DNA of 64,000 bases, from the IMG/VR virus record IMGVR_UViG_3300031417_000379, one strand, 5' to 3'. The translations under genes and the position numbers were made by a program. The stretch is from a virus (taxonomy: Duplodnaviria > Heunggongvirae > Uroviricota > Caudoviricetes). Under the pieces are notes generated by a model. It saw only the letters and a program-made list of their open reading frames with translations, was not told the origin of the DNA and did not search any database. How positions within the stretch are numbered: the stretch's first letter is position 1; every line of letters starts with the position of its first letter. Shown here piece after piece: positions 5,012 through 61,057 of the stretch.

Positions 5012-5017
5012 TACTAC

Positions 5018-8096: not shown

Positions 8097-8127
8097 TTAT
8101 TCATAGTACGCCTGAGCTAGCCGTCTG

Positions 8128-25054: not shown

Positions 25055-26428
25055 TTAGTACCAGTTATGAGACTCAGAGTGTGCCCAGGCTCCGCAGGGA
25101 TTTGTATACCTGCCTTGGATATACTTCAAGCCCCACTTGATTTGTGTTTCGGGGTTAGTTTTCCAGTCAGCGCCTTCGGAAGCCATCTTCTCGCCGGGGA
25201 GAGCTTGCGGGATACCGTAGGCCGGTCCAGCAGGGTTGAACGCATCCACTCGCCAGTTTGACTCGCGATTCCAGAGCTTCACAAGACAGGTAAAGTCTGC
25301 TTCGCTCCAGCCGTTAGACTTAACGATCTTGTGAGCAATTTCCTGTGGATTTCCGGACGGAGCGGTCGATGGGCCGCTATTGCCACCACTCGAGCTGTCT
25401 CCTTGAGCCCACTCCGGCGGTGGTGGAAGCATCGGGTCATCGTCTAGGAACGTGCCTTGGTAGCCCTCTGCCGGTGGGAGGAACCAGCCACGGATTCCGG
25501 ATCGGCTACGGTCATCGAGGATACGGTAGCCAGGACCGGTAGCAGGGCCACCGGCGTGGATGTTCCAGGTGTTGTCGATCACCTTTCCGTCGTCTGTAAG
25601 CACAACGTAAGTGTGACCAGCAGGGCCGGTTCCGGTAGACTGTACGATGGCACCGGCAGGAGGTTCAGTCTGTTTAGCTCCTGGAGAAGCGGTGTTTGGG
25701 AACCACCATGACTGCGCTTGCATACCAGCAGCAAGAAGACGCTGGTAGTTCTGGTAAGCATTAACGATGCCGTTGTTACCGATGTAGTGCTCAGGCATAC
25801 CGTAGATGATGTTCACGATGTCTGGGCAAGCAGCACGCCACGGGTTACCGTTAGTTCGTCCGGGGTTACCGCCGTGAGCAGATACGAAGGAGTCAGAGAT
25901 CGGATACTTGTAGGCGTTCTGGCTGAGAAGTACGGCTCTCTGGGCAAGTTTTGCAAAGTTACCGTTAGCGACACCGGCGCCAGTTTCCTGGCCATCTACA
26001 GCGATAGATCCTACAGTCTGGTAGGTGGTCGTGGTAGCGTTGGCTACGATGAAGATAACGAACACTACGGCGATGGCGATCCATGTGATCGGATTCCCGA
26101 GCGCTGCAACAGCACCCTTAGTTGCCCAAGCAGCACGGGAGAGGTTCGCTCGAGTCTTAGCTACAGTTTGCTCTACCTGAGCAGCAAACTTGCCAGCCTC
26201 TTCTGGAGATGTAGGGATACCTCCGAAATCGTTTTCCTTGTTCTGGACTGCCTGGTCGTTGTCAGCTCGATCTTCATTCGTGACGTTAGAACCATTTTCT
26301 AGTTCTTCAGGATCCTGAGGCTCCGCGTAGTACTGTTCGTTCTCGCGGTCCATTTCGAGGTTACATTCTCTGCAGAACTCGCTACCGTTTTCCCGGTCAC
26401 GCTCACCGCAATTGTTGCACTTTTCCAT
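25055..26428 (-). CDS. membrane-anchored cell-wall hydrolase: zinc-ribbon + TM + CHAP-like + C-terminal lytic-transglycosylase-like domain
   Basis: N-terminal CNNCG..CREC zinc ribbon; TM helix; central CHAP-like segment (..GHTYVVLTDDGKVIDNTWN); C-terminal GWSEADFTCLVKLWNRESNWRVDAFNPAGPAYGIPQALP..QIKWGLKYIQGRY transglycosylase-like motif. Confidence 0.75.
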   Translation of the reverse strand: MEKCNNCGERDRENGSEFCRECNLEMDRENEQYYAEPQDPEELENGSNVTNEDRADNDQAVQNKENDFGGIPTSPEEAGKFAAQVEQTVAKTRANLSRAAWATKGAVAALGNPITWIAIAVVFVIFIVANATTTTYQTVGSIAVDGQETGAGVANGNFAKLAQRAVLLSQNAYKYPISDSFVSAHGGNPGRTNGNPWRAACPDIVNIIYGMPEHYIGNNGIVNAYQNYQRLLAAGMQAQSWWFPNTASPGAKQTEPPAGAIVQSTGTGPAGHTYVVLTDDGKVIDNTWNIHAGGPATGPGYRILDDRSRSGIRGWFLPPAEGYQGTFLDDDPMLPPPPEWAQGDSSSGGNSGPSTAPSGNPQEIAHKIVKSNGWSEADFTCLVKLWNRESNWRVDAFNPAGPAYGIPQALPGEKMASEGADWKTNPETQIKWGLKYIQGRYTNPCGAWAHSESHNWY

Positions 26429-26434
26429 CTAGTA

Positions 26435-29400
26435 TCACTCCCCGTTAGATGGGTTATCAGCCTGCGGTCCCGGCAGGCCTCCGCCTGGACGGGTAGGAAT
26501 ACCCCCGCCAGGTCTCGGGGCCGGCGGTGTTGACGGCGGTGTGTCATTGAAAGTCGGAGTTGTCGGAGCAGCCGGCGCCTCAGGCGCAAGCCTTACTAGA
26601 TTCCTGATCTGTTCTTCGATCTTTCGCGCAATAGCGTTAGTACCAGCACCGCTGTTTCGAGCGTTCTTAGCTGTCGACTTAATTAGCTCCTGGTACTTTG
26701 CGATCTCCTTAGCCTGTTCAGTAGTCTGCGGAGCCGCCTTTGCGAGTTCGTTAGCCATATCGACTAGCTTATCGAGACTCTGGTTAATAGCAAAGTCCTC
26801 AGACGTCTTCGGCTTCTTTACCATCGGAGCATCGTCTGCTGTCAAGACGCTTTGGCTGCGAGCGATTCCGGCTTGAACACGCTCGTTATCCTTGATAGCC
26901 TTCTCGTGGTCTTTAGCAGCAGATTGAGCGTCACGAGTTGCATCCTTGACATCACGACGAGCCTCGCGCGACTCACGACGAGCCTCGTCAGCCTCCACTC
27001 GCATCTTGTCAAGCGCCTCCTGAGCTCGAGTCTCGGCTTCCTTAGCTGCCGCATCGCGGGCTATGGCGCCGAGGCTCGAAGAGAGCTTAGTCTCTAGACG
27101 CTGTCGAGCGTTCTCATACATTTCCGGAGTGATTTCCTTGCCTGGCTCAGGAGCGTTCATGCGCTTTTCAAGCTGCTCGAGCTGGCCTCTGGTTTCACGA
27201 ACCACATCGTCCTGACCTCGAGCGTATTCAGCTCTCATTGCCGAGTCGCTCTGTGCAAGTCGAAGCTGTTCTACTGCGGCTCTAACAGCTCGATCAGTGA
27301 GCTCGATGTTGTTATTAGCCTCACCTCTAGCCGTCTTAGCACTGTCCTGAGCCTGTGTAGCAGCTGCGTTACGGGCTTCGGCAGCCTGACGAGTAGCGTT
27401 TGTCTCCGGGAGACGCTCATCGAGAGTCATGCCGGTACGCGATACCGAAGCTGTTTCACGCATTGCGGCAGCGGCACGCTCACGCAGCGTCGGAGCCGAA
27501 GCTTCTGTAGCTTCAAGTCCGTCTGCCTGCTTGAACGCGGTGGAGACGCCCTTACCGATTTCCTGCGCCTCATCCATAGCCTTACGGTTGTCTCTACCCG
27601 TCGGAAGCTTTCCAGGGCCGAGGTCCTGCATCTGCTGGAACATCTTGTCAGCGGTCGCGCGGTTACCGGCAGCCGCAGCCTCAGCAGTACGAGCACGGGT
27701 TCGTGCAGCCTCAGCCTCAGAATCGAGCGAGGACGCCTTCTCCTGTACAACCTGAGTGTTAATTCGCATCTCACCTGCAGCCTCGGTAGCGCGAGTAACA
27801 CCGTTCTCAGCCATAGTGATTCGGATGTCTGCGTTATCCAGATCACGACCGGCGTTCATAGCCTGCTTGTTCGCGTCGAGAACAGCGTTCTCGTTGAACT
27901 TCTGGATAGTGCCGTCATCGTTTACGAACTGCGGGTCGAGACGCTTCTCATTGTTAAGCTTAGCGTTGTAAGCGCTCTCTTCACGCTTCCAGTCCTTGAG
28001 CTTTTCAGGAGTGTTCGTGGCGCCGTTGTAGATCTGACCAGCCTGAACCTTAGCATCGTCACGCTGTTTCTCAAGGCGAACGAGGTTAACCGTATCTCCT
28101 CGAGCTCCAGCAAGCTTCGCCTGAAGACCAAGAGCCTGTACATCGGCCATAAGCTTCTTGAAATCGCTCATGTCCTTACCGAAGGTTCCGTCGGCCAAGC
28201 CGCTTTCGGCTACGGCTTTCTCAAGCTCTGTATGAACAGCTGCTTTAGTGGATTCCGTGTCAAGCTTTAGATCAGCGTCAGCGGCTACATTCTCAAGGCG
28301 CTGTTTGTCTAGGTTAGCATCACGAAGTTCACTTTGAGCTTCTCCGATACCGTTAACCGCTTTATCTTGATCAGCGCGTGCAGTCGCTAGATCGTTATCA
28401 GAGAAAGCCTGAGCCGCCTTGGCGCTGTTGTCTGCATCACGATCAAGTGCAGTTGCTGTGCTTTCTGAGCGCTTTGCAGTGTCTCCAGCACGAGTAGCCT
28501 CGCGGTTAAAGTCAGTCATGTTGTCGCGCTTCTGTCGTTCAGTAGCCTGAGCAGTACGCCCGACGAGACCAGGAGCGGAGCGGAGTTCGTTCTGTGCAGC
28601 GATAGCAGCACCCTGACCCATCTTGCTAATTCCACCTGCAGCGAAACCACCAAGCGCACCGCCAACAATGGAGCTAGGCATCTTAGCAGCCTTGTCGCCC
28701 AGTTGTCGAGCACTTGCACCCATCATGGGGATCTTCTGGTCAAGCACGTTAGCCATACGCTCTCCACCGAGGTTCACACGACTGAAGGTCTCAACGATTT
28801 CCTTACGGTACATCCAGAGGACCATCGAGAGGATACCGACAAAGAGCAGAGCAGACATAGGATCAGCCGCACCGAGAACGGCGCTATAAAGAGCAAGCGA
28901 GACGAGCAAGAAGATGGCTGAAGCCAGGTACTTCAAGATCGAAGCTAGAATTGTCTCAAGCCAGCCGAGCATGATCTTCTTTCCCCGGGTCGGGTGCATA
29001 CCCACCAGGATGAAGAGCGGGGCGAAGATCATAAGAATCACTGCAGTGAGGTAGTACATGAGAGCAGTGATGGCTACAACCGAGATGAGGATTCCACCAA
29101 GGATGGTTGAGACAACAGCAACGATACCCTGAGCGAACTGCTGGCCACCGTTACTCCAGATCGGCCACATCTTGTCGCTAGAAGCGACTGTGGTGATCAG
29201 GTTGTACCAAGCTGGGTCAAACTGCGTTGGAGTGTTGCTCGTTGTCTGTCCCGCCGGAGTGACCTTCATTTGCATGAGCATGTTGTAGACAGCAAGGTTA
29301 CAAACCTTGGAGCCTCCGGACTTAGACTCAAGCCACTTACCATCGTAGCCGTTCGCGCTACCGGTGGTCTGTAGGGAGTAGCAGAACTTATTCGGGTCAA

Positions 29401-30670
29401 CGCCGGATTTTGCTACGGCCTTCCCGGCGACAGTGTCAGCGTTCTTTACCTCAAGCTGGTCAAGATTAGTGCCGAAAGCGCCCTTAGCGTAGTTCTGTAG
29501 GATAAAGGTCTTCCAAATGGTGCAACCCATGCTATTGACTGCTAGCCCGGTGAGCTGATCCGCTGTTGCACCACTAGCATCTGATACGCAGACACCCTTG
29601 TCAGCGGTTAGGGCCACGCCATCAGATGTCTTGGTTCCGAAGCCCGCTCCGCTAAAGCAGTTAGCTCCGTTAAACGCTCCGATCACACAGCCACTTACTG
29701 TGTTCGAGGCCACCATCGGTGCTTTCGCGAGCATGCTTGGGTTAAGGAGTACGGCTAAGCCGATGATGAACGATACCGCGAGCCAAACGGCCTGACCAAG
29801 CGCATCACGGAAGCGTCGCTTAACAACACCGGTGTAGAGCACGCCGAGCGCAGTCACCATGACAACAATGAGCACGAGTGGCTTATAGATGCTGTTGGTA
29901 AGCGAACCGATGAGGCCGGTGTCGCTAGTGTTCGGAGTACCACCGATGATACGAACTAGATCAATACAGCCGTCTGCTGCCGGAGTATTCGGATCACAGA
30001 TGAATGAAGAGTTAAAAGCGTTGGTGGCTAGCCAGGTAACAGTTGTCTGGATAGCGTTAGCAGCTCCGAGCCCAATCCCGTTAGCCACGTTAGTGACGAA
30101 AGTCTGCTCCCAGAAGCAAGTACCGGTGTTGCGCTCGCCGGTGAGCTTATCCTTGATGTCTCCCCAGTTAGTTTTGTAGGTCTGAGGAAGAATGCCGGCG
30201 GTACTGTCGGACGATCCCTTACCGGTGCCGTCGTCAAGAGCCTTACCAGCGAGCCCATTCTGATTGAGCACATCAGCGTACGGCTTCACGAAGAAGTCTG
30301 ACTCAGGGCCTGGCCCAATGCCGGTGTAGTTTGTCCACGCAGGAGCACCGACTACTTCGTTGATGGTGAACGTGCGGCCCTTAAGCTCCGGATAAAGCTT
30401 TCCGCCCCAGGTGCCGGCACCCCAGGGGCCACGTTCGTCCATGTTTCCGCCGATAACGGTGGTACAGCTCATGCCGAGGCCCGCGCTAGCGGTGGTTACG
30501 TGCTTCGTACTGCTAGCATCGATAGCCAGCGCACCGGCGCCGATACCGATGAGTACCGTCGCTACGGCCGCTAACGCTGCTATAGACGAAGTGAGCCTTG
30601 TCTTGAGGCTTCTGACGCGCGTCCTGTCGGTTGCACCGATGTAGTTGGCGCCTTTGGTTCGAAGCTTCAA
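26435..30670 (-). CDS. 1411-aa polytopic membrane protein (VirB6/TrbL-like, tentative) with ~750-aa coiled-coil and Pro-rich C-terminal tail
   Basis: Signal-like N-terminus, many TM helices in the first ~640 aa, then long A/R/D/E-rich coiled-coil; immediately upstream of the CHAP/transglycosylase gene (Tn916 orf15-orf14-like pairing); a tape-measure role cannot be excluded. Confidence 0.8.
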   Translation of the reverse strand: MKLRTKGANYIGATDRTRVRSLKTRLTSSIAALAAVATVLIGIGAGALAIDASSTKHVTTASAGLGMSCTTVIGGNMDERGPWGAGTWGGKLYPELKGRTFTINEVVGAPAWTNYTGIGPGPESDFFVKPYADVLNQNGLAGKALDDGTGKGSSDSTAGILPQTYKTNWGDIKDKLTGERNTGTCFWEQTFVTNVANGIGLGAANAIQTTVTWLATNAFNSSFICDPNTPAADGCIDLVRIIGGTPNTSDTGLIGSLTNSIYKPLVLIVVMVTALGVLYTGVVKRRFRDALGQAVWLAVSFIIGLAVLLNPSMLAKAPMVASNTVSGCVIGAFNGANCFSGAGFGTKTSDGVALTADKGVCVSDASGATADQLTGLAVNSMGCTIWKTFILQNYAKGAFGTNLDQLEVKNADTVAGKAVAKSGVDPNKFCYSLQTTGSANGYDGKWLESKSGGSKVCNLAVYNMLMQMKVTPAGQTTSNTPTQFDPAWYNLITTVASSDKMWPIWSNGGQQFAQGIVAVVSTILGGILISVVAITALMYYLTAVILMIFAPLFILVGMHPTRGKKIMLGWLETILASILKYLASAIFLLVSLALYSAVLGAADPMSALLFVGILSMVLWMYRKEIVETFSRVNLGGERMANVLDQKIPMMGASARQLGDKAAKMPSSIVGGALGGFAAGGISKMGQGAAIAAQNELRSAPGLVGRTAQATERQKRDNMTDFNREATRAGDTAKRSESTATALDRDADNSAKAAQAFSDNDLATARADQDKAVNGIGEAQSELRDANLDKQRLENVAADADLKLDTESTKAAVHTELEKAVAESGLADGTFGKDMSDFKKLMADVQALGLQAKLAGARGDTVNLVRLEKQRDDAKVQAGQIYNGATNTPEKLKDWKREESAYNAKLNNEKRLDPQFVNDDGTIQKFNENAVLDANKQAMNAGRDLDNADIRITMAENGVTRATEAAGEMRINTQVVQEKASSLDSEAEAARTRARTAEAAAAGNRATADKMFQQMQDLGPGKLPTGRDNRKAMDEAQEIGKGVSTAFKQADGLEATEASAPTLRERAAAAMRETASVSRTGMTLDERLPETNATRQAAEARNAAATQAQDSAKTARGEANNNIELTDRAVRAAVEQLRLAQSDSAMRAEYARGQDDVVRETRGQLEQLEKRMNAPEPGKEITPEMYENARQRLETKLSSSLGAIARDAAAKEAETRAQEALDKMRVEADEARRESREARRDVKDATRDAQSAAKDHEKAIKDNERVQAGIARSQSVLTADDAPMVKKPKTSEDFAINQSLDKLVDMANELAKAAPQTTEQAKEIAKYQELIKSTAKNARNSGAGTNAIARKIEEQIRNLVRLAPEAPAAPTTPTFNDTPPSTPPAPRPGGGIPTRPGGGLPGPQADNPSNGE

Positions 30671-30807
30671 GACTCAGGCCTCACTTAGTTGAAATCAGCG
30701 GTAGTCCGCTGCAGAGTAGCTGATTTGAATATCGACTCAGGGTAAGTCTACAGCGATACGTAGTTCTCTAACTTTGCACGGTCGATTTGCCGTGACGAAC
30801 GTTGAAA

Positions 30808-30856
30808 CTAAGCACCGCGGCCACGCAGTTTTGAAGTGCGTGGCCGCGGTGCTTAG
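30808..30856. terminator. 19-bp perfect-stem hairpin downstream of phoH-like gene
   Basis: ctaagcaccgcggccacgc-agttttgaagt-gcgtggccgcggtgcttag; just past the 30872 stop on the minus strand. Confidence 0.6.
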
Positions 30857-30871
30857 GGGTTACTAGCGAAA

Positions 30872-32299
30872 TCAGTCGTGCTCTAGAATGCCAGCAGCAA
30901 TCTCAGCAACACGCGAACGCTCGGTCTTCGTTAAGGTGATGTGAGCGAAGATGTCCGTATCCTTTAGCGAGTCGATGACTGACCAAATGTCAGCATCCTT
31001 ACCGGACTTTAGGAAACGGTTGTCAACCTGAGCAGAGTCGGCGGTGAGAACGATCTTCGTCCCCTGGCCGGCTCGCGAAAGGATGTTCAGAATCTCGGAT
31101 CGGCTGAAGTTCTGAGCCTCTTCAAGAATCATAAAGGTACGAGCAAGCGAGCGACCACGGAGATAAGTGATCGGAGCGATCTCTACCATCTCTCGCATCT
31201 TCTTCGACTCTTCCTTCTGCTTTTCACGAGCAGCCTGAGTTGCGTTCTTCGGGAGTGGCTTCTCAAGGCGCCCGAGGGTGTCGATAGCGTCAAATACAGC
31301 GCCAGCCCAGGGGCCCATCTTCTCATCGACGCTTCCCGGGAGGAATCCCATCTCCTGACCCTGACCAAGCTCGTGGAGGGAACGGAAGATCATGATCTTC
31401 TCATACGTCCCGGCCTTTAGCTCGCTAAGAGCAGCTGCGATAGTAAGAAGCGTCTTTCCGGTACCGGCGCCACCACCAACCGAAACAACGGGGAGCTCCT
31501 CCGGAGATGCGGTAAGCAGTTCGAGGAGTACGTTCTGCTCGATCGTCTTACCGGTAACCTTCATGGCCTTCTTCTTGTGACCAACCTTAGTGATCTTTTT
31601 GTTGGAGACAAGAACGGCGGCCTTGGCTGGCTCACCCTGGATGGTGAACTCGACAAAGCTGGTGCTCGGTGCATCTTCAGGAAGATTGGCAAGCACGTAA
31701 GCCTCTAGCTCGGCATCAACGCCGTCGCTGTAAAGACCGAAAGCGTCAACATCTTCGTTCTTCACGTCGATTACGAAGCGCCCCTGGAACGGCTTCTTGA
31801 GATTACGAGTAGAGGAGTACTCAAAAGCCTCAAGATCGAGCTCAAGCGAAGCGTGTAGACGCATCGGCATGTCGTTGGAAAGGAGTACAACATTCTCACC
31901 CTCCTCGCGCAGGTTGACAGCAACGGCTAGAATTGTGCTGTCGTTGGTTCCGTTCTGCAGGTGCTCAGGGAGTGAGGTCTGGCGTGAGTGGTTCGGCTCG
32001 ATCTGAATGCGAACGCCGGGGTGATCCTCAAGCTCGATTCCCGCCTTGAGCTTGGAAGCATCGGTGATGCGGTAGTTCTCGATGAGTCGCAGCCATTCAC
32101 GTGCCAGGAAGCCCAGAGTGGCGTGAGTCCGCTTTTCCTCAAGCTCTCGAACGACTACGGCTGGAATAACAACCTTACAATCGCTTAGATTCTCGAGGAG
32201 GAACGTCCCTGCAATAAGCAGTGAGGACGTGTCGCTAACTACAACCTTCCCTTTCAAAACTTCGGTTAATGAGCTGGTCTGGATCTTCGAAGATGGCAT
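30872..32299 (-). CDS. phoH: PhoH2-like ATPase (N-terminal PIN domain + PhoH-like P-loop ATPase)
   Basis: Walker A GGGAGTGKT, PhoH-like C-terminal region, and an N-terminal PIN-like acidic-residue segment (VVSDTSSLL..). Confidence 0.85.
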   Translation of the reverse strand: MPSSKIQTSSLTEVLKGKVVVSDTSSLLIAGTFLLENLSDCKVVIPAVVVRELEEKRTHATLGFLAREWLRLIENYRITDASKLKAGIELEDHPGVRIQIEPNHSRQTSLPEHLQNGTNDSTILAVAVNLREEGENVVLLSNDMPMRLHASLELDLEAFEYSSTRNLKKPFQGRFVIDVKNEDVDAFGLYSDGVDAELEAYVLANLPEDAPSTSFVEFTIQGEPAKAAVLVSNKKITKVGHKKKAMKVTGKTIEQNVLLELLTASPEELPVVSVGGGAGTGKTLLTIAAALSELKAGTYEKIMIFRSLHELGQGQEMGFLPGSVDEKMGPWAGAVFDAIDTLGRLEKPLPKNATQAAREKQKEESKKMREMVEIAPITYLRGRSLARTFMILEEAQNFSRSEILNILSRAGQGTKIVLTADSAQVDNRFLKSGKDADIWSVIDSLKDTDIFAHITLTKTERSRVAEIAAGILEHD

Positions 32300-32349
32300 G
32301 CTCTACCTTATTCTATTGGTTGTGGAGTACTGCTAAGCGATGTTAAGTT

Positions 32350-32416
32350 GTATGGTTCTTTCTAACAAGAAAGCTACCCTTCTAACAAGCTTGAGGGAGG
32401 AAGCGTTGTGCCTCCT
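32350..32416. promoter_or_regulatory. two ttctaacaag direct repeats (20-bp spacing) followed by a 13-bp perfect-stem hairpin, upstream of phoH
   Basis: Repeats at 32350-32359 and 32370-32379; hairpin agcttgagggagg...cctccctcaagct at 32378-32416; lies between the TadE-like gene stop and the phoH start. Confidence 0.4.
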
Positions 32417-32464
32417 CCCTCAAGCTATATCAGTAGTAATGAGCGCCAGCTCACAACTCAGGCT

Positions 32465-33115
32465 TCACTTGGAGATGTCTTCGTTAGATCCGAAGGTGAT
32501 GCCGGAGACCACGCTCTTACTAGTGTAACAGCCGGCTTTCTTCCCAAGTACTGCGAAGCCATCGCCGAGAAGGGAGTGTGAAGCTTCGTAAACCGTTGCT
32601 GACAAGACACGGTAATTAGGCTTTGTGTTCGGAGAATGTACAGCCTGTGCCGGTGCGCCACCGTTCGAGATATAGAGCGGGGCGTCAACCGAGCTTACTC
32701 CTCGACCTCGTGAAGGGTCAAGACTAATCTCCATGTACGGAGATGCGTGTACGACTCCGTTTACCTCCACTGTGCTACATGTGGAGCCGGAGCCTTCTGC
32801 CGTCTGGTAAGCAGCACTGTCTTTACCGGCCACTAAGTTTGGGTTAGCGGTACGGTTCGTTAGCTGCATATACTCGCTCACGAACGTATCGACCGAACCC
32901 TTATCGAGGAAACCGGCGTTGTTAATGGCTCCAGCGGCTTTCTGAGCTGACGCTTGAGCGGAATCAGAGAATGAGGCCTTGAACCAGCTGTTCTGAGCGA
33001 GACCTACAGCAAACATGAACGCGGCCATGAACAGAGGAATACAGATGAGCACGGTCACAAGAACCGCGTCACCTCGATCCCTTTGCTTTTTAAGAATAGA
33101 GTCATAGCTAAGCAT
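32465..33115 (-). CDS. TadE/TadG-like pseudopilin-type protein
   Basis: N-terminus ...QRDRGDAVLVTVLICIPLFMAAFMF resembles the TadE-like N-terminal helix. Confidence 0.55.
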   Translation of the reverse strand: MLSYDSILKKQRDRGDAVLVTVLICIPLFMAAFMFAVGLAQNSWFKASFSDSAQASAQKAAGAINNAGFLDKGSVDTFVSEYMQLTNRTANPNLVAGKDSAAYQTAEGSGSTCSTVEVNGVVHASPYMEISLDPSRGRGVSSVDAPLYISNGGAPAQAVHSPNTKPNYRVLSATVYEASHSLLGDGFAVLGKKAGCYTSKSVVSGITFGSNEDISK

Positions 33116-33117
33116 GC

Positions 33118-33723
33118 TTAGTTCCTGTTGACGAGAGCGGAGTCGTTAAGGTTAACCTCGGTTGTGGTAGTGACACGCGTGGTCATTACGCCGTCGAGGC
33201 CCCCGCCGGCCTTAACATTAGCGTTACCGGCAGCACGTAGGAGTGTGAGACCGGAGCCAGGAACACCGGCGTACTTCCACTGAACATCACAGAACGCCTG
33301 CTGTCCGATGAAGTTTGACTTGCTCGGGCCACAAGTGACCTTAGTAATAGTCACATTAGTAAGCCCAGCAGAAGTGCTAAGGTTAGCCATAAGCTGGCAC
33401 TCGATGGCGGTGTTCTTCGTCATCGGGTTACCACTAATCTGAACGTTCGGGTTATTCACTAGCCCCGAACATGGATTAACAGCTGAACCGTAAGCCTTCT
33501 CAAGTTTAGTCTCTTGAGTGTTCGTACCGTTACCACCGAAGATAGAAACGGTACGAACAGCATCACGAGTTGAGCTTAAGATTACGTTGCGGTTCATAAA
33601 GAAGATCGAAGTATCGACAATCGTAATGAGAATTGCAACAATGAGCGGGATGACAATGATGGTAGACACCAGGGTAGAGTCACCCCGGTCACGCATTCTG
33701 CGCTTGAGTTTGGAAAACAGCAT
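33118..33723 (-). CDS. TadE-like protein (paralog of the preceding gene)
   Basis: N-terminus MRDRGDSTLVSTIIVIPLIVAILITIV matches the same pattern. Confidence 0.55.
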   Translation of the reverse strand: MLFSKLKRRMRDRGDSTLVSTIIVIPLIVAILITIVDTSIFFMNRNVILSSTRDAVRTVSIFGGNGTNTQETKLEKAYGSAVNPCSGLVNNPNVQISGNPMTKNTAIECQLMANLSTSAGLTNVTITKVTCGPSKSNFIGQQAFCDVQWKYAGVPGSGLTLLRAAGNANVKAGGGLDGVMTTRVTTTTEVNLNDSALVNRN

Positions 33724-33795
33724 CTGCCTACTCCTGATTGGTCATCTAGCTATTGCGAATATCACTTAGGCTACTTTCTGACCTTTCTAAACGAG

Positions 33796-34665
33796 TCAGC
33801 CGGCAAACGCCTGAAGCTGCTTTACCTGCTCCTGGAGTCGACTAATCTCGTCAGCGTAAGACTCGCACTGAGAGCAATTAAAGACTCCCGGAGGGTTACC
33901 CCAGTTATTGTCGGCCACGTCAATGATGGAAACGTAGAAACGACGGCGTGCGTCTAGATTAAGGTGCTGATCAGCAGCGCTGTTGGGAGTCTGATCAAAG
34001 ATTAGCATACGAAGATAGTCAGTGGTGGACAGGCATAGACGCTGTGCACGGAACTTAACCTTCTCAGCTTCAGCGTAAGTCATACGGCCCTGAAGTCGCA
34101 CCCCACGCTTATCACCGGTCTTTGAAACTAGCTTGTCGAGCTTTTTCATGAGATCAACGAGCTCGCGCTCCATGATCGCCACCTGCTCCGCATCATCGTG
34201 ATCTTCGCCCTCTTCGAGAGCAACCTCGATCATCTTCTTACGGTTCTTCAGGTCCTTCTGGCCTTTCGAGAGGCCGTCTAGCTCATCAAGAGCTTTCTCA
34301 GCAATCTCACGCCAGTCAGCCATGTTCGGAGTACCCATTGCTCGTGAGCGGATGAGCGCGCCAAGAGTAGTGGATTGACCAGTAGCCTTAATCGCGCGAA
34401 CCTCACCGTCGAGGATAGCTCGCTCGCCTGCTGAAAGAGCGATCGATACACGCTGATCCAGCGGGGCACCCTTGCGACGCCGCGCTGCGGTGCGAGGCTT
34501 CCAATCTTTGAAGATCTCGATGAGGTCAGTCTGTCCTCGGCGTTCTAGGATCTTTAGCTTCTGATCTACAGACAACGCTTCTCCAGCGGTGTTATAGCTC
34601 TTCGAAGCGTGATCGTGACGCTGATCGTTGAACTTCCTCGTCAGGTTCTCGGTGGTGTGAGCCAT
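33796..34665 (-). CDS. MobC-like relaxosome accessory protein (two RHH-like repeats)
   Basis: Two copies of the MobC-type motif: RVSIALSAGERAILDGEVRAIKATGQSTTLGALIRSRAM and RMTYAEAEKVKFRAQRLCLSTTDYLRMLIFD. Confidence 0.5.
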   Translation of the reverse strand: MAHTTENLTRKFNDQRHDHASKSYNTAGEALSVDQKLKILERRGQTDLIEIFKDWKPRTAARRRKGAPLDQRVSIALSAGERAILDGEVRAIKATGQSTTLGALIRSRAMGTPNMADWREIAEKALDELDGLSKGQKDLKNRKKMIEVALEEGEDHDDAEQVAIMERELVDLMKKLDKLVSKTGDKRGVRLQGRMTYAEAEKVKFRAQRLCLSTTDYLRMLIFDQTPNSAADQHLNLDARRRFYVSIIDVADNNWGNPPGVFNCSQCESYADEISRLQEQVKQLQAFAG

Positions 34666-34770
34666 CGTTACTCCATACCCTCTAATTAGCTGTAGCTGAC
34701 AGCTTGAGCGATTTGTTTGCTGTTGTGCAGTGGTTGTATGTGGTGCAGGACTAAGCTCTTAGAATTGCTT

Positions 34771-35598
34771 CTAGCACTTCGTCTTAATGACGTTCTCGAC
34801 AGCTTTCTTATCGGCCTCGGTGATGGTGAGCCCGTATTTGTCGATGACCGTTACGAAAGAGTTCACGTACTGGCACTGGAAAGCGCCGTTCGGAGGAAGA
34901 TACTCAGACGGCCCCTTGTCACCTTTGCTTCGGTTCTCTTTAGCAATAGAGATGTAGAGGTTCTGAGGATCGTTAGCGAGCTGCTCTTTCTTCGCCGCGC
35001 TAAGCTTGTCTCCGCCGCTCTTCGCCGCTAAGCTTAGAGCCACCACGTGATCGATGTCCAGCTTGGACGAGTCAGTCACCTTGGTCTTTGCGTAAGGCTC
35101 AACCCATGCACCGCCGGTGATCTTGCAGGTGGATGGATCGTGCGTTACGTTAGTGCCACTCTTAATGAGTACGTCTTCTCTGGTGTCGCAGCCGTTGCCG
35201 TCGAGATCACTCCAGTGCTTCCACTGCGAGCGAGAGTAATCGGTGCTCTGCTCAGGCTTCACTACAAGCGAGTTAAGCTGTTTCGTGAGTTGCGAAGCAG
35301 TAACCGGCTTCTCACCTGTCTTATCTCCGCTAGCGGAGGGGATCTTTGCGCCCTTACCCTCTTCGTAGCCGGGGATCGGCGTCTCGCAGGTCCAGTGTAG
35401 GTCGCTTACGCCACAGTTCTCGATCTGACTGCTCGCGGTACGGAAGTAGTCTAGTGCATCGCTGATGCTGCGGATGTTATTGCTGTTACCCCAGGCTATA
35501 ACGAAAGCTACAATGAGTAGAATGCTGAAGCCGCTAAAGAGGCCGGCTTTAAGACCGCCACCGCCTCCTCCACCGCCTCTACCGGTACGTCGCGCCAT
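34771..35598 (-). CDS. membrane-anchored secreted DUF1524/HNH-like (His-Me finger) nuclease
   Basis: Gly-rich basic N-terminus + TM helix; domain with WKHWSDLDGNGCDTREDVLIKSG and DIDHVVALSLA resembling DUF1524 secreted nucleases. Confidence 0.55.
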   Translation of the reverse strand: MARRTGRGGGGGGGGLKAGLFSGFSILLIVAFVIAWGNSNNIRSISDALDYFRTASSQIENCGVSDLHWTCETPIPGYEEGKGAKIPSASGDKTGEKPVTASQLTKQLNSLVVKPEQSTDYSRSQWKHWSDLDGNGCDTREDVLIKSGTNVTHDPSTCKITGGAWVEPYAKTKVTDSSKLDIDHVVALSLAAKSGGDKLSAAKKEQLANDPQNLYISIAKENRSKGDKGPSEYLPPNGAFQCQYVNSFVTVIDKYGLTITEADKKAVENVIKTKC

Positions 35599-35601
35599 GG
35601 A

Positions 35602-37005
35602 TCAAGCCTCCCCTGAGCCGAAGATGAAGTCCCCGACATCATTGGAGTTTCTAAAGCCGGATGTAGCAAGGAACGAGAGGTTCGTAGTCTGCTTGAACGA
35701 CTTGATTCGAGTCGAGTCACCGGGCATCTGCTCGAGGAAGAGTTCGGCCTGGTCACCTGCAGTCCATGTGACGTTGATGTCGAGGTCAGCGTAGCGCTGC
35801 TTCACGATGGAGCAGTACTTACGAAGGATTTCCTCGGTAGGCGTTTCTACAACAATGCGGTAAGAGCCCTCAACCCATGGGGCCTTATCGCTGCCGAGGA
35901 CATCAGTCATAATCTGCACATCTTCGAGCGCTCGGGCCACATCGTCAGGAAGACCGCCGTTGATGACGCTTCCGGTGGCTGTAGCTCCAGCATAAGCGTT
36001 CTCGATCTCGTCTTTCTGTTCTTTCTTCTTCTTCTCGATTTCTTTCTTCATGATTTCTGACGGCTTAAGCGTCAGTCGAGCGTAGAGAGTGAACGGAAGG
36101 CTAAGTTTGTTCGGGAAGTACATGAACGGGAACGTGCCAGGGTAGTTGCTAAAGCGCGGGAATTTAGTAAAGCTTAGGCAAGCACGGTAACCCTCCAGCT
36201 CTTGACCATCTACAATCTGGTTGATCTTGAGCCAACGGTACTTGTTCTCAATAGCCGAGGCGGTCTCAAGCTCCATGTCTCCAGGGCCGAGGCGTGATTC
36301 GTGGTCAACGTCAAGGTACGGAGTCGGCATGGAGGGGTACATCTGTCGCTTGATCAGAAGTAGAATATCCTCGGAGGTAAGGCGCTTTGCCTGGAGATTC
36401 CCGTTCGCAAGAGTACGGAAGATCTCCGCCTCTTTACGCCGAGCACTATCTTCCTCGTCTGCTGAAATCTCTTCACCGGGAATGGCTAGAGCGCGATCCC
36501 ACCACTTGAGAAGCTGCTCTTTCGTGCCCTTGATACCCATTTCGAGGAAGTTTACGTCTTCGAACTCGAGAGCACCACGTTTACCGATGTTTACGCCGAG
36601 AGTAACTACCTTCTTGAGGTACTCCTCCTGCTTGAGATAGCGAATCTGATCATCGAGGTATTTGTCGAACCCGGGAGACCGTCGCCAATCCTGAGTGATC
36701 TCTTGGATCTGAACGCTCCAGGCGTCAATGTCAATCGGGACGGAAGATTCGATGATGTGGATATCCATCGATTCTTTACGGTCACCCATAAGGTTCGTAA
36801 AAGCGTTAGCAATTTGGAACGCGCCGGCGATCTTTCCATCTGATGAAAGGAAGTCGAAGACATCCGTCGTAAGACGGTAGTAAGCCCATGTTTCGGTCTT
36901 TGAGAACACCAGATTATCTACCACTGCGACCGCTGCTGGCTTTAAGTCTTTCTTGGCTGCCTTTGCCTTCTTCGCCTTAGCGTCCTTCGATTCTTTCTCA
37001 GCCAT
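35602..37005 (-). CDS. hypothetical protein (possible ATPase-less VirB4 N-terminal-domain homologue)
   Basis: 467 aa; N-terminal lysine-rich tail, then VVDNLVFSKTETWAYYRL... pattern reminiscent of VirB4/TcpF N-terminal domains; no Walker A found. Confidence 0.75.
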   Translation of the reverse strand: MAEKESKDAKAKKAKAAKKDLKPAAVAVVDNLVFSKTETWAYYRLTTDVFDFLSSDGKIAGAFQIANAFTNLMGDRKESMDIHIIESSVPIDIDAWSVQIQEITQDWRRSPGFDKYLDDQIRYLKQEEYLKKVVTLGVNIGKRGALEFEDVNFLEMGIKGTKEQLLKWWDRALAIPGEEISADEEDSARRKEAEIFRTLANGNLQAKRLTSEDILLLIKRQMYPSMPTPYLDVDHESRLGPGDMELETASAIENKYRWLKINQIVDGQELEGYRACLSFTKFPRFSNYPGTFPFMYFPNKLSLPFTLYARLTLKPSEIMKKEIEKKKKEQKDEIENAYAGATATGSVINGGLPDDVARALEDVQIMTDVLGSDKAPWVEGSYRIVVETPTEEILRKYCSIVKQRYADLDINVTWTAGDQAELFLEQMPGDSTRIKSFKQTTNLSFLATSGFRNSNDVGDFIFGSGEA

Positions 37006-37059
37006 AGCAACCGTCCGTTCTGAGTTGGTGTGTCACGTTCTATATCGTTTTGGTGCTTA

Positions 37060-37105
37060 AACTTCTAGCCACTGACAAGTGTTAACTCGTCAGTGGCTAG
37101 AAGTT
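37060..37105. terminator. 17-bp perfect-stem hairpin (aacttctagccactgac/gtcagtggctagaagtt)
   Basis: Between the 37117 stop and the 37005 start on the minus strand. Confidence 0.5.
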
Positions 37106-37116
37106 ATGAGCTGATC

Positions 37117-37419
37117 TTAATTGATCTGTTTAGCTGCCTTCTCAGCGGTGCCGGTTAGTGCACCACCATCACCGAACAGTGCCGGACCGGCGAAGATGAG
37201 CACACCGACGATGGCAGCAATACCGATGAAGCCGATGAGCTTTGTCCAGGAGCGGTCTTTAATGAACATGATAGCGAAAATAGCTACAGCCGCAATGAAG
37301 ATTGGAGTAACCCACCCTGAACGGAGAGAGTTCCAAAGCTCATTCAGACCAGCAGCTGGGATTACAGTTGCTAGATAGGTGAATGTGTTTAACATGGTTG
37401 ACCCCAGTTGTGTTTGCAA
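37117..37419 (-). CDS. small hydrophobic protein (VirB2/pilin-like, tentative)
   Basis: 100 aa with 2-3 TM helices, located next to a TraG-like ATPase. Confidence 0.65.
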   Translation of the reverse strand: MQTQLGSTMLNTFTYLATVIPAAGLNELWNSLRSGWVTPIFIAAVAIFAIMFIKDRSWTKLIGFIGIAAIVGVLIFAGPALFGDGGALTGTAEKAAKQIN

Positions 37420-37465
37420 ACATTACCGGTTGGAGGCCGGCGATTCGAATATCGGTATCTCTAAC

Positions 37466-39082: not shown

Positions 39083-39102
39083 GTACTGATGTAAATATCA
39101 CT

Positions 39103-41679
39103 TCAAAGCTCAGGTAGACTCATGTCTCCAATATTCGGAAGTGATGCATCTGCAGGCTTTTTCTGTTGCGGCGCAGTTGGAATACCCGTAGGGCGAGTGG
39201 GAAGACCGACTCGCTTTGGAGCGCCTGACTGTGAGCTTTGAGCAGGGCTAGGAGGCTGCACCAGCGGCTTAGACGGCGCGGGAGCCGCCGCAGGTGTCGT
39301 CCCAAATAGTGAGTCGAGACCGTCGCTATCTGTCAGCTCTGGCTTTTTCTGCGGGCTCTTTGGACCTACAGGCTTACGAAGCGGAGGAGTCGGCGCCGGT
39401 GCCGCACCGCTAAAGATAGAGCTTAAGGTCTCCGGCTTGTGCTCCTCATCTTCTGACTCGAGTAATTCAGCCGGCGCCTCAGTCATGATCCATTCGTCGT
39501 CTTCCTCGTGATAAGTCGAGAAATCATCCTCTTCGGCGTTACGAGCCGGGAAGTTGAACATCTGGCGCTCTTCTTCGGGATCGAACTCATCAAAGTTCAC
39601 GTCTGCTACTGCCTGCTGACGAGTGTAATCGTGCTCAAGGGCTGTAGACGAATCTTTAGCCTTCTCAACTGCCGGCTTAGGGCGGCGCGCGAGTTCTTTC
39701 TGAGCGCCACTGTAATAGTCAGCGAGCACCGCCACCGGAGGAACCATCCAAACAGAGCGTGCAAGTGCTCCGCCCCCGCGCTTAGAGTACTTCGGATCTG
39801 CCGTTGTCTTCGTAACCCAAACAGCTGATGACTTGAAGCCGTTCACCGGGTCTGGCGAGGAAAGCTTCATGAACTCTGACGGTGGGTAAACCCAACGCTC
39901 TTCCTCACGCGCGGCCACCCGGCTGTCCATGCTTCGTGAACGATTGTAGCTCAGGAATGAGCTGTCGTTCTCATTAGTTCTTGAGTAAACCGTGACAAAG
40001 TGTTTTCCAAGAAGCTTTGAGAGGCGTGTAGCTGAGTCCTCTGTTGAGCCGGCGTGAGCGATGAAGTTACCACAGGTGTCAAGGATAGAGTTAAGGTATG
40101 ACTCCCCAGCTTTCTCAGCTGAGGCTACCACCTGATCGAAAGACTGCTGAGCAATGGTCATGGCCATCTTTGACTCACGTGACTTCTCGAGAAGCGCTGT
40201 AACTGCATCCGGCGGGACCGCCTGGAATTCGTCAACGTAGATGCTTACTTCGTTGTCTGCCTGAGCGTTACGACGAAGAGCTGAGATGTTCGTGAGATCC
40301 GAGAAGATCATTGATCCCACGTACTGAGCGAACTCCGGCTCCGAGTCAGAGTTGAGAGAGAACATAATGACGTTTCCCGGCTGCTTGGTGAGCTCGAAGA
40401 GATCAATCTCTCGATCTCCAGGAGCGTTGCCGGTTCTCATCCAACGGCCGTACTCCGAAGCTGTGATGGTTCGCATCTGGCCTTGGAGCTCAGTGTAGGC
40501 TTGAGTAAGAGCGCCTTTAGACTTAAGCGCCTCACCAATCTCGATAGCGTTCTTTGCGACCGGTGAGTTGACCGGCACTGATTTCCGGACATCGTTGATT
40601 CCACCTTCGCCTACCGGAGTGTAGGTGTACTTGAAAGTTTCGGGGAAGCGCTTGTCATCCGAGTTAGCGTCAACAAGTTCGTTCATGCCGTTGCCGGAAA
40701 CAGCTGAAGCTAACTGAGCTATGCCACCGTGATCCCAGTCGATGCTTCGAGCAATTTCACGGTTTCCGTACTTGAACATGGCAAAAGTTACCTGGAGTAA
40801 CTGCTGCATGGCTGTCTTGTAGACTGCAGCAGCGCTGTCATACTCGCGCATACCGAGAACCATGTCAGCTTTAGACGTAGGAGTACCCGAGCGTAGGGGA
40901 TCGTAGTAGCACTGCCCCTTCGAGCGGGGGATGTCGTAGTCCTCTGGATCGCCGTTGACAAAGTGGTAGAACTCTCTGCCGTTCTCTTCGGCGAACGCAG
41001 CAGCCATAGCTGCGAACTTCGGCGAACGCTTAAAGTCGATGACCACTACGGTCTTGCCCATTTCAATGTCAGAGTGCATGAGACTCTGCATGGTGATACT
41101 CTTACCGGAACCGGTCTGGCCGGTAATGAACGTATGCTTAGCCGCCTCTGTAGAGTAGCGCGAAACCACCTCATCAGTTTTCTCGTCAATTCCCATAGGA
41201 GAGCGCTTCACAGTGGTAAGAAGGCCGTTTTTGAGCTTCTGAATGTTCTTTTTGCGCTCGAGAATCTGTAGAGGCGTACGGCGGTAAGAGAACCTATAGC
41301 GCCATGAGCCTTCTAGCTGAGTTAGGTACGGGTTACGCTTTAGTCGACGAGCTTCTAACCAAACAAAGCCGTACCCGGTCGGTGCACCTAGTACGACACT
41401 AAGTCCAATCCATGCTGGAATTAGCGACGGTAGATACTTGGTGAAGTTTGATAGATCACCGAAGAGCTGTGAAAGTCCGCTTACTCCAATACCAAGAGTT
41501 ATGAGCCCAATAATCCCCACCGCGGCGGCGACCGCGCTGACCACCGTCGGACGATTCCGGTGGTAGCGGAATAGATACCAGAGTGAGTACGCGACGATGG
41601 CACCGGGGAGGAAAACCAGCCCCAGAACGATTAGAATCGGCCACGGAGAACTCTGCTTGGCGTCTTCATCATCGGCCAT
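39103..41679 (-). CDS. FtsK/TraG/VirD4-like coupling-type ATPase with 3 N-terminal TM helices and a Pro-rich C-terminal tail
   Basis: Walker A FITGQTGSGKS (~aa 190) after N-terminal TM helices; Walker B-like IYVDEFQAV; 858 aa. Confidence 0.75.
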   Translation of the reverse strand: MADDEDAKQSSPWPILIVLGLVFLPGAIVAYSLWYLFRYHRNRPTVVSAVAAAVGIIGLITLGIGVSGLSQLFGDLSNFTKYLPSLIPAWIGLSVVLGAPTGYGFVWLEARRLKRNPYLTQLEGSWRYRFSYRRTPLQILERKKNIQKLKNGLLTTVKRSPMGIDEKTDEVVSRYSTEAAKHTFITGQTGSGKSITMQSLMHSDIEMGKTVVVIDFKRSPKFAAMAAAFAEENGREFYHFVNGDPEDYDIPRSKGQCYYDPLRSGTPTSKADMVLGMREYDSAAAVYKTAMQQLLQVTFAMFKYGNREIARSIDWDHGGIAQLASAVSGNGMNELVDANSDDKRFPETFKYTYTPVGEGGINDVRKSVPVNSPVAKNAIEIGEALKSKGALTQAYTELQGQMRTITASEYGRWMRTGNAPGDREIDLFELTKQPGNVIMFSLNSDSEPEFAQYVGSMIFSDLTNISALRRNAQADNEVSIYVDEFQAVPPDAVTALLEKSRESKMAMTIAQQSFDQVVASAEKAGESYLNSILDTCGNFIAHAGSTEDSATRLSKLLGKHFVTVYSRTNENDSSFLSYNRSRSMDSRVAAREEERWVYPPSEFMKLSSPDPVNGFKSSAVWVTKTTADPKYSKRGGGALARSVWMVPPVAVLADYYSGAQKELARRPKPAVEKAKDSSTALEHDYTRQQAVADVNFDEFDPEEERQMFNFPARNAEEDDFSTYHEEDDEWIMTEAPAELLESEDEEHKPETLSSIFSGAAPAPTPPLRKPVGPKSPQKKPELTDSDGLDSLFGTTPAAAPAPSKPLVQPPSPAQSSQSGAPKRVGLPTRPTGIPTAPQQKKPADASLPNIGDMSLPEL

Positions 41680-61010: not shown

Positions 61011-61057
61011 ATACTTCTATCCCCGGATGCAGTAATAGCATCCGGGGATAGAAGTAT
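61011..61057. terminator. bidirectional terminator, perfect 20-bp stem (atacttctatccccggatgc / gcatccggggatagaagtat)
   Basis: Exactly between convergent 60628..60999(+) and 61061..61795(-). Confidence 0.7.

Follow-up and report, generated by a model that had tools for sequence, protein, structure and literature searches.

What is a set of conjugation-type genes doing in DNA filed as that of a tailed phage? The question is raised by a stretch of 64,000 nucleotides from the virus record IMGVR_UViG_3300031417_000379 (here referred to as the window), in which the minus strand carries nearly all long open reading frames (ORFs) and positions 25055-41679 are filled by 11 consecutive minus-strand genes. 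A first-pass annotation had likened this block to type IV secretion systems (T4SSs) of the Gram-positive MPF-FATA/Tn916 type and had left the identity of the replicon open, appropriately in our judgment. Our analysis indicates that the block is very probably a real T4SS-derived module belonging to the core of its lineage. The explanation that we favor as a whole is that a T4SS-derived module of Gram-positive type, vertically inherited as a core part of phage-like elements of about 0.3 to 0.83 Mb in monoderm bacteria, serves contact-dependent transfer of the element's own DNA; we consider the chances for and against this complete account to be about evenly balanced.

Window proteins were assigned to families by profile searches with Pfam, NCBIfam, and PHROGs. 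In order of transcription, the block consists of the following genes.

39103-41679, minus strand: type IV coupling protein (T4CP) of the VirD4/TraD/TraG type, 858 aa, assigned from Pfam and NCBIfam matches, motifs, and two N-terminal transmembrane (TM) helices
37466-39082, minus strand: TcpC/VirB8-like bitopic protein with a disordered N terminus, one TM helix, and two predicted NTF2-like domains (AlphaFold2 and Foldseek)
37117-37419, minus strand: small membrane protein, 100 aa, two TM helices, at the TcpD/pilin-like position (weak TcpD_dom match)
35602-37005, minus strand: N-terminal half of a VirB4/TcpF protein alone, 467 aa, no P-loop ATPase domain (profile match)
34771-35598, minus strand: membrane-anchored GmrSD_C/DUF1524 (His-Me finger) nuclease (Pfam GmrSD_C, 4.2e-10)
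33796-34665, minus strand: NikA-like ribbon-helix-helix (RHH) protein, 289 aa, of the relaxosome-accessory type (Pfam NikA-like, 4.4e-07, above the cutoff)
33118-33723, minus strand: TadE-like pseudopilin-type protein with an N-terminal TM helix (Pfam TadE, 6.7e-05, above the cutoff)
32465-33115, minus strand: second TadE-like paralog (N-terminal similarity, a TM helix, and position)
30872-32299, minus strand: PIN-PhoH (PhoH2-type) ATPase/RNase (Pfam PhoH, 5.3e-40; PIN_4, 3.6e-16)
26435-30670, minus strand: VirB6/TrbL/TcpH-like polytopic protein, 1411 aa, with a long coiled-coil, low-complexity C-terminal tail (profiles and TM helices)
25055-26428, minus strand: membrane-anchored cell wall hydrolase, CHAP-like with a C-terminal transglycosylase-like domain, at the TcpG/Orf14 position (profiles)

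The T4SS-like genes named by the first-pass annotation all lie on the minus strand where it had placed them, and the profile and structure evidence given below supports the resemblance that it had proposed. Six T4SS component families are present in canonical order. The tcp genes of pCW3 run A-C-D-F-G-H, and those of Tn916 run orf21-16-15-14-13; measured against this established reference, the succession of T4CP, TcpC, TcpD, and TcpF and, farther along, the TcpH-like protein and the hydrolase is the Tcp/Tn916 order.

The coupling protein, which had been described as FtsK/TraG-like, proves to be of the VirD4/TraD type. It matches TrwB_AAD_bind (1.3e-11) and TraG-D_C (2e-10) in Pfam and SXT_TraD (1.1e-27) in NCBIfam, and its Walker A motif, GQTGSGKS, lies at residue 187; the GSGK of Walker A and the DEFQ motif (Walker B) are invariant across 24 aligned homologs. 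A collection of 5.8 billion proteins holds about 160 homologs, many of them on contigs of 0.4 to 0.83 Mb. Several coupling proteins of the family (P0042, P0043, P0060, and many forms of 1130-1430 aa) have a LAGLIDADG domain (PF14528) or an insert of about 300 aa, in either case probably an intein within the ATPase.

For the next protein in the order, which the annotation had placed at the VirB8 position and whose single TM helix spans residues 208-226, the sequence evidence was weak: the TcpC match in Pfam reached only 0.0024, and a profile search of PDB sequences with the family found nothing. We therefore modeled its structure. An AlphaFold2 model of residues 215-538, built from a 14-sequence alignment (pLDDT, 76; pTM, 0.72), contains two domains that each combine helices with a curved sheet, as in NTF2. 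When this model was compared with the PDB by Foldseek, the top match was TcpC of pCW3 (3UB1; E value, 4e-10; probability, 1.0), followed by the VirB8-like OrfG of ICESt3 (7PKW; 1.6e-07) and then PrgL of pCF10 (7AED). The predicted fold thus points to a VirB8-like bitopic component. The small protein that follows, previously called pilin-like, has two TM helices and a conserved position in relatives; its match to TcpD_dom of NCBIfam (0.0011) is below the cutoff.

The VirB4 ATPase is the one ubiquitous T4SS protein and is considered the indispensable motor. The window encodes its N-terminal half only, in agreement with the earlier description of a VirB4-like protein lacking ATPase motifs: the 467-aa product aligns to positions 7-428 of the 813 positions of ATPase_TcpF in NCBIfam (1.3e-16), covers positions 9-429 of the 815 of phrog_24614, and contains no Walker A motif. 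When 1.84 billion representatives were searched exhaustively by HMMER with this protein as the query, all complete close relatives (some 40 representatives sharing at least 30% identity) were 444-492 aa long, shorter entries being fragments, while full-length VirB4/TcpF proteins (780-850 aa, Walker A near residue 480) appeared only at 33% identity or less and matched through their N-terminal 430 residues. The truncated form is a conserved clade and is family-wide. Across the window and about 712 kb of sequence from 18 family contigs, single VirB4 C-terminal ATPase halves used as queries found only generic P-loop similarity to T4CPs, and a hidden Markov model of 48 such halves found no true match. 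Either a VirB4 motor is encoded far off on the replicon or the machine runs on the coupling ATPase alone; the only other NTPase in the module is PIN-PhoH.

At the far end of the block, the 1411-aa protein, noted earlier as polytopic with a coiled coil, can be identified as TrbL/VirB6-like. Residues 460-616 match TrbL of Pfam (2e-07; 31.5 bits against a gathering cutoff of 25.9), the protein matches CD3337_EF1877 of NCBIfam (7.7e-15), and it has six or seven TM helices; its orthologs in relatives are 1474-1586 aa long. The first-pass annotation had allowed that this protein might be a phage tape measure and the ATPase a packaging protein. Neither reassignment finds support, given the TrbL domain and TM helices of the former and the VirD4/TraD-specific domains and two N-terminal TM helices of the latter. 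The adjoining hydrolase had been read as CHAP plus lytic transglycosylase. The second part stands, as the C-terminal domain matches AggPromo_Cterm (1.7e-34) and the transglycosylase family phrog_12661 (4.3e-34), and this domain qualifies the protein as the peptidoglycan hydrolase of a T4SS; the matches to CHAP (0.0025) and to Phage_lysozyme2 (0.0015) are both weak.

Between the VirB4-like and VirB6-like genes lie the remaining members. The membrane nuclease, which the earlier annotation had overlooked, has a TM helix at residues 18-36 and is encoded in every relative examined. The protein formerly called MobC-like is indeed of the relaxosome-accessory type, though it is a NikA-like RHH protein and not MobC itself; it has weak MbpA/MobA matches in NCBIfam and is 42-96% identical in relatives. 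Two TadE-like proteins had been proposed, and both are retained, one above the Pfam cutoff and the other by its N terminus and position; in some relatives the second position is occupied by a larger Flg_new/SH3 surface protein. In relatives, PIN-PhoH always follows the TadE-like genes and precedes the VirB6-like gene.

Is this block a recent arrival in its replicon? We compared relatives on contigs of 149 and 22 kb (92% identity), on contigs of 828 (Ga0540622_0000002; 828,236 bp), 670, 475, 300, and 43 kb, and on 16 IMG/VR contigs of 109-437 kb. The order in relatives is NrdH-like, DnaG, one or two unknown genes, T4CP, TcpC-like, small membrane protein, VirB4 N-terminal half (450-490 aa), GmrSD_C nuclease, NikA-like, TadE-like, TadE-like or surface protein, PIN-PhoH, and VirB6-like (1470-1590 aa). 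The module order is the same in every relative with a readable neighborhood, with ThyX, DnaG, and PhoH interleaved. Identity of module proteins to those of the window ranges from 26 to 99% (85-99% for most genes in the closest relative and mostly 30-60% in the others), and the GC content of the syntenic relatives ranges from 0.36 to 0.57, within about 34-60% for the family. Two neighbors upstream of the T4CP share this constancy.

41731-43344, minus strand: acidic helical protein, 537 aa, directly upstream of the T4CP (positional ortholog in relatives)
43872-45761, minus strand: DnaG primase, as context (profile match)

The acidic protein, whose orthologs evolve fast, occupies the same position in 11 relatives and has no match in Pfam, PHROGs, or the PDB, including a PDB profile search with its family; DnaG lies constantly one or two genes upstream of the T4CP.

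These comparisons bear on the idea that the block is a recently inserted or decaying integrative and conjugative element (ICE) or conjugative transposon in a phage or chromosome, as its truncated VirB4 gene and the lack of a relaxase or integrase in the window might suggest. The same truncated form and the same order with DnaG, ThyX, and PhoH are, however, kept at 40-60% identity across GC contents of 0.36-0.57, and the catalytic motifs of the T4CP are invariant. Moreover, the GC content of the window (53% overall) is even, at 0.49-0.56, without a shift across the block, and the direct repeats that the first-pass annotation had suggested as marks of integration were not found: no att-like repeats of at least 20 nt flank the block, only short imperfect matches that look like chance. 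No integrase, Rep, or Par family was matched by window proteins, and none was seen in the sampled relatives among the best 25 of 44 and the best 25 of 76 matched PHROG families. We regard this alternative as largely refuted and hardly tenable. The conserved order and identity over a wide range of GC content, together with the invariant T4CP motifs, argue that the module is ancient and selectively maintained; it is a core part of the lineage, interleaved with replication genes, and not a mobile insertion. The earlier picture of an embedded block therefore holds insofar as the block sits among phage-type genes and fails insofar as it implied an insertion.

On what kind of replicon does the module reside? 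Contig ena:ERZ27247408:k141_1142885 (740,336 bp) encodes a protein that shares 100% identity with one from the left end of the window, and over an 11,111-bp overlap the DNA of window and contig does not differ, which places the window at approximately positions 206,812-270,811 of that contig. Further attempts to extend the window gave little: neither the T4CP nor an 87-aa ORF has its exact sequence on record, look-ups with 62152-62877 led to no more than a 1.9-kb contig, and exact 50-mers had no match in IMG/VR or JGI. In the adjoining 10 kb, the contig encodes CdsA, a PlsC-type acyltransferase, and a topoisomerase I that is split, besides unknown ORFs. This topoisomerase consists of two ORFs (453 and 369 aa) with an ORF of 68-112 aa between them and is found in loci L039 (18048-20730) and L038 (1078-3825), from two distant relatives. 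One sample, 3300031088, yielded five related giant contigs of 673,773, 681,631, 697,643, 727,571, and 475,499 bp, with GC contents of 0.33-0.61, and contig sizes in the family cluster at 670-830 kb.

To reach parts of these genomes away from the module, we used as a dispersed probe an N-terminal Cys motif peculiar to the lineage, YH[VIM]NPETG..C..C.FG, of which the window has five copies. The probe yielded about 25 additional 20-kb stretches of giant contigs. In all, about 0.7 Mb of family sequence was covered, amounting to 10-20% of any one genome. All confirmed IMG/VR matches of the motif were on family contigs, and it is therefore a lineage marker. The domain that bears it (YH[VIM]NPETG..C..C.FG..H..(S/T).EEA) is joined to C-terminal domains of differing kinds, in the window at 353-1111, 53918-54733, 55786-56748, 56786-57997, and 61792-62121, and is present in 103 of the 636 ORFs of the sampled relatives. 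No repeated intergenic motif of at least 14 nt was found that would have allowed a relative's whole genome to be sampled.

The sequence around the module is rich in phage-type genes. PIN-PhoH, ThyX-like, NrdH-like (CxxC), sigma-70 factor, and DnaG proteins, as well as a tRNA, had been proposed as phage-hallmark accessory genes, all of which we recovered along with a SNF2 helicase. Four further features place the window in this context.

48438-50909, minus strand: rIIA homolog with a GHKL ATPase N-terminal domain, 823 aa, as context (phrog_612 RIIA, 2.5e-45, and six further RIIA/RIIB PHROGs)
2445-2927: pyrimidine-dimer glycosylase of the T4 DenV type (Pyr_excise, 8.3e-18; placed through the gene table of the identical contig)
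1302-2387: SPFH/Band 7 membrane protein (phrog_200, 2.6e-36; placed in the same way)
63306-63378, minus strand: tRNA with anticodon CTA, of the amber-suppressor type, as context (labeled Pyl by ARAGORN; Rfam tRNA, 58 bits)

A search for an rIIB homolog within the window found none; in relatives, rIIB (PF26926) adjoins ThyX or ThyA-DHFR. Relatives also encode a T4-type topoisomerase II, NAD ligase, clamp loader, ribonucleotide reductase (RNR), endonuclease VII, HNH endonucleases, and YqaJ, together with Mom-like and polynucleotide kinase (PNK)-like proteins, NAPRT, and TnpB; their envelope-related and other genes include MoxR-vWA, M23+SH3b hydrolases, pilin-like adhesins, and major facilitator superfamily (MFS) transporters. 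One contig with the full T4SS-like module (Ga0308157_10000058, 475,499 bp) carries an array of 30 tRNA genes in 9 kb (locus L074, 565-9284), and another relative carries 12 in 5 kb (locus L021, 181-4816). The CTA-anticodon tRNA is conserved in relative loci L047 and L107. TAG is the stop codon of 13 of the 67 window genes despite this tRNA, for which recoding of late genes elsewhere in the genome is one conceivable role. Most proteins have no Pfam family.

Domains in the window and in relatives, namely TcpC, CHAP, G5, SH3, ChW, Flg_new, M23+SH3b, DUF4232, and DUF6458, point to monoderm hosts. Some cargo looks cellular: CdsA and the PlsC-type acyltransferase (by Pfam), an EmrB/EfpA-type MFS transporter (by PDB match), and, judged by eye, a ClpB-like AAA+ protein and an RseP-like site-2 protease (loci L039, 16378-17993; L055, 13568-15700; L048, 2089-3873; L073, 12864-14195). 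With a concatenated polyprotein as the query, the PDB gave matches to an MFS transporter, a TPM domain, and leucine-rich repeat (LRR) surface proteins and to nothing else.

Contigs of this size also raise the idea that the module sits on the chromosome of an ultrasmall bacterium. Saccharibacteria and other members of the Candidate Phyla Radiation (CPR) have genomes of about 0.7-1 Mb with chromosomal T4SSs, and the contig sizes of 0.67-0.83 Mb, the conserved synteny, and housekeeping-like proteins such as DnaG, a sigma-70 factor, TopA, CdsA, PlsC, and PTH2 would fit such a chromosome. We took up this candidate on account of the 0.4- to 0.83-Mb contigs bearing T4CP homologs and dropped it after two scans of GTDB, in which none of 185,579 species (one genome each) had a member of the T4CP family. 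In addition, Rfam matches in the roughly 345 kb scanned were to tRNA only, with no rRNA; no annotated protein matched a ribosomal protein or an aminoacyl-tRNA synthetase; most proteins lacked a Pfam family; and the tRNAs are clustered in the arrays of 30 and 12 rather than dispersed, in elements that also carry rIIA and rIIB. A CPR chromosome is, on this evidence, very improbable, and a cellular genome of any kind scarcely less so.

Catalogs of mobile elements are similarly sparse. The T4CP had no match in 50,697 GenBank phage records, no family relative above 26% identity was present among the 72,556 plasmids of PLSDB, and a megablast search with the block matched neither GenBank phages nor PLSDB; in IMG/VR the family is partly represented. 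Two IMG/VR entries show how it is represented there. IMGVR_UViG_3300031088_000782 (309,534 bp) corresponds to positions 304,588-614,121 of Ga0308157_10000026 (681,631 bp), and the sampled flanks hold the same kinds of genes. In IMGVR_UViG_3300012642_000011 (437,576 bp), two 21.8-kb loci, each about 10.7 kb from one end, are identical and inverted, so that this contig is either a fold-back assembly artifact (2 × 219 kb) or bears very long terminal inverted repeats containing the module.

How the module might work can be sketched from its parts. A membrane-anchored, hexameric VirD4-type ATPase would be the only recognizable motor, with PIN-PhoH perhaps acting as another NTPase. The VirD4-type ATPase would pass a nucleoprotein substrate, tagged by the NikA-like RHH protein, to a channel made up of the VirB6-like polytopic protein, the wall-spanning TcpC/VirB8-like protein, the small TcpD-like protein, and the VirB4 N-terminal half as a scaffold. 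The CHAP/transglycosylase enzyme would open the peptidoglycan, and TadE-like and other element-encoded pilin-like adhesins may establish contact between cells. The most likely substrate would be the element's own DNA, passed to neighboring cells beside or instead of virions. Hfr-like transfer proceeds at about 45 kb per minute, at which rate 740 kb would pass in roughly a quarter of an hour. A bolder version, in which a deep lineage of elements of about 0.7 Mb with a T4-like core uses a T4SS driven by VirD4 and lacking the VirB4 motor for direct cell-to-cell transfer of its genome, and which would make these elements conjugative phages, or phages that have abandoned or supplemented their virions on account of genome size, is offered tentatively and with low confidence.

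Several points weigh against transfer as the module's job. This function is read wholly from homology, and we rate conjugation-like transfer of the element's DNA a little short of an even chance. A VirB4 ATPase domain was found neither in the window nor in the 712 kb of family sequence, so that the machine need not work in the canonical T4SS manner. No relaxase, integrase, terminase, or capsid family was matched by any window protein in Pfam, NCBIfam, or PHROGs, which agrees with the first-pass annotation, and no relaxase was seen in the sampled relatives. Virion genes were missing there as well: the roughly 0.7 Mb sampled showed no capsid, portal, terminase, or tail gene. The sample of relatives is biased toward neighborhoods of the one paralog family defined by the Cys motif, and its PHROG annotation covers the best 25 of 44 and, for 85 relatives' proteins, the best 25 of 76 matched families; within those, 140 relatives' proteins included no terminase, portal, or capsid. 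T4 gp17, gp18, gp20, gp23, and others had no phmmer match in any family locus. Among unknown proteins of the window, PHROG matches to a terminase large subunit (5.2e-4) and a minor head protein (8.2e-4), not traced to a protein, were not significant after multiple testing.

The gene content just described can also be read as that of virion-forming huge phages in which the module serves the infection cycle and not conjugative transmission of the genome. Possible roles would then be drawing in the rest of a long genome after first-step entry, import or export of DNA or protein, remodeling of the envelope, and superinfection exclusion. The T4-type set of rIIA, rIIB, DenV, endonuclease VII, topoisomerase II, RNR, PNK-like protein, and ligase fits such phages, as do the tRNA arrays with a suppressor tRNA and sizes that cluster at 670-830 kb over very different GC contents, as would follow if a capsid set the limit on genome length. 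The lost VirB4 motor hints at a noncanonical use, and the membrane nuclease within the module is reminiscent of DNA-uptake systems. Against it stand the missing virion genes and the lack of any T4CP match among GenBank phages; we know of no phage with a T4SS module of this kind. Inclusion of the family in IMG/VR points the same way as the T4-type genes; it is weak evidence because the giant elements named Hodors, to which we return below, are also called viral, and because only 309,534 bp of the 681,631-bp contig were kept there. We consider this reading of the module unlikely.

A different reading takes the same absence of virion genes as its starting point and holds that these are conjugative megaplasmid-like replicons that form no virions and are misfiled as viruses. 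Their T4SS would then be canonical, its VirB4 ATPase half, relaxase, and oriT being encoded on other parts of the 740-kb replicon. The T4CP and the NikA-like accessory protein suggest a relaxosome, cell-like cargo is present (CdsA, PlsC, MFS transporter, ClpB-like, and RseP-like proteins), and the Hodor and Inocle elements, giant elements of Gram-positive hosts with VirB4 and VirD4, provide precedents, Hodors having been found inside huge-phage collections. This reading is opposed by the failure to find a VirB4 ATPase domain in about 712 kb; by the absence of Rep_3, ParA/ParB, and relaxases among annotated proteins; by the lack of PLSDB relatives above the identity given; and by rIIA, rIIB, endonuclease VII, and large tRNA arrays, which are unusual for plasmids. 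We judge it quite unlikely. As to the element itself, T4-type genes, tRNA arrays, and the clustering of sizes over differing GC contents favor a huge phage, while the conserved T4SS-like module and the lack of any visible virion gene favor a Hodor-like, nonviral giant element. We lean slightly toward a virion-forming huge phage; that it is a giant element without virions that runs on phage-type replication genes is a serious possibility, though short of an even one.

Two sets of observations concern the window more generally. Twelve tandem minus-strand paralogs of about 190-236 aa, helical by eye and without a Pfam or PHROG match, occupy positions 5018-12572, and nine similar tandem paralogs are found in relative locus L096 (1359-5905 and beyond). 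A hairpin scan found two hairpins within the block.

30808-30856, no strand assigned: hairpin with 23-bp arms, 96% complementary, between the PhoH and VirB6-like genes
37060-37105, no strand assigned: hairpin with 21-bp arms, 95% complementary, without a U-tract, between the TcpD-like and VirB4 N-terminal genes

These belong to a set of intergenic hairpins with arms of 20-23 bp, 95-100% complementary and lacking a U-tract, which also occur at 4960-5012 and 61011-61057; the one at 37060-37105 could be a terminator, an attenuator, or a protein-binding site. The block contains 4 sigma-70-like promoters, fewer than the 8.5 found in shuffled sequences. Hairpins and promoter scarcity are consistent with an element that uses its own transcription signals.

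Conjugative-transfer genes are routinely used to sort giant metagenomic replicons into plasmids and phages, and this family, with rIIA/rIIB and tRNA arrays beside a conserved T4SS-like apparatus, breaks the rule. If virions are formed, we know of no earlier case of a T4SS-like machine in the core genome of a phage lineage, and its presence would suggest a second, contact-dependent route of transmission or a novel way of bringing very long genomes into the cell. If they are not, the family would extend the newly recognized Hodor/Inocle class of giant Gram-positive elements to about 0.8 Mb and would show that a large phage replication core can ride on a nonviral replicon. In both cases, VirB4 has lost its ATPase throughout the family and kept its N-terminal domain, a natural experiment on the minimal needs of a T4SS.

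Among known conjugation systems, Tcp of Clostridium perfringens pCW3 and the systems of Tn916 and ICESt3 contain the same families in the same order as the window block: coupling ATPase, TcpC/Orf13/OrfG, TcpD-like, TcpF/Orf16, TcpH/Orf15, and TcpG/Orf14. Unlike all three, the window has a VirB4 homolog without the whole ATPase half, and its module lies in a 0.7-Mb element rather than in a plasmid or ICE of 20-75 kb. Its coupling protein is of the VirD4/TraD type, whereas that of Tcp is the FtsK-like TcpA; no counterpart of the Tcp/Tn916 relaxases (TcpM, Orf20, MOBT) was found in the window; and its extra conserved members are the membrane nuclease, PIN-PhoH, the two TadE-like proteins, and the 537-aa acidic protein.

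Huge phages of more than 600 kb resemble the family in size class, in tRNA arrays with a suppressor tRNA, in phage-type genes for replication and nucleotide metabolism, in mostly unknown proteins, and in being known from metagenomes only; they differ in that no virion gene was seen in the sampled part of the window family. The huge phage BF3, at 841 kb, has a GC content of 55.4% (bioRxiv 10.1101/2025.01.14.633092), close to that of the window's clade, and identity with Jug phages was rejected on their GC content of 27-30%. The papers on the huge phage genome collection, BF3, Jug phages, and the Al-Shayeb huge-phage clades describe no T4SS-like module; in the 2020 survey of Al-Shayeb and colleagues, conjugative-transfer genes were a criterion for calling a plasmid (PMC7162821). 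Phage-plasmids likewise combine phage-type and plasmid-type functions on one extrachromosomal replicon. They are typically smaller than 150 kb, with clear virion modules and typically without conjugation machinery, and the present family is, as far as seen, the reverse, with a T4SS module present and a virion module not seen.

Hodor megaplasmids of the human gut have a GC content of 45-47%, a size of about 350 kb (211-389 kb), an intact VirB4, Rep_3 with ParA/ParB, and a MOBH-like relaxase, and they are classed as viral by geNomad and VirSorter2 (bioRxiv 10.64898/2026.02.21.707213); Inocle elements, from Streptococcus hosts, have a GC content of 24-32% and a size of about 245-370 kb (PMC12340149). 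Compared by published descriptions, the family differs from both in its GC content of 34-60%, in sizes of up to 828 kb, in its truncated VirB4, in the absence of any Rep/Par seen, and in its T4-type replication and nucleotide-metabolism set, rIIA/rIIB, and tRNA arrays. Identity with either was rejected on GC content and features as those papers describe them: neither GC, size, and host range nor Rep_3/ParAB and an intact VirB4 agree. What the family shares with them is that it consists of giant extrachromosomal elements of Gram-positive hosts, known from metagenomes only, with VirD4 and VirB6/VirB4-type genes, and the giant conjugative elements of the Hodor/Inocle kind are the closest published concept.

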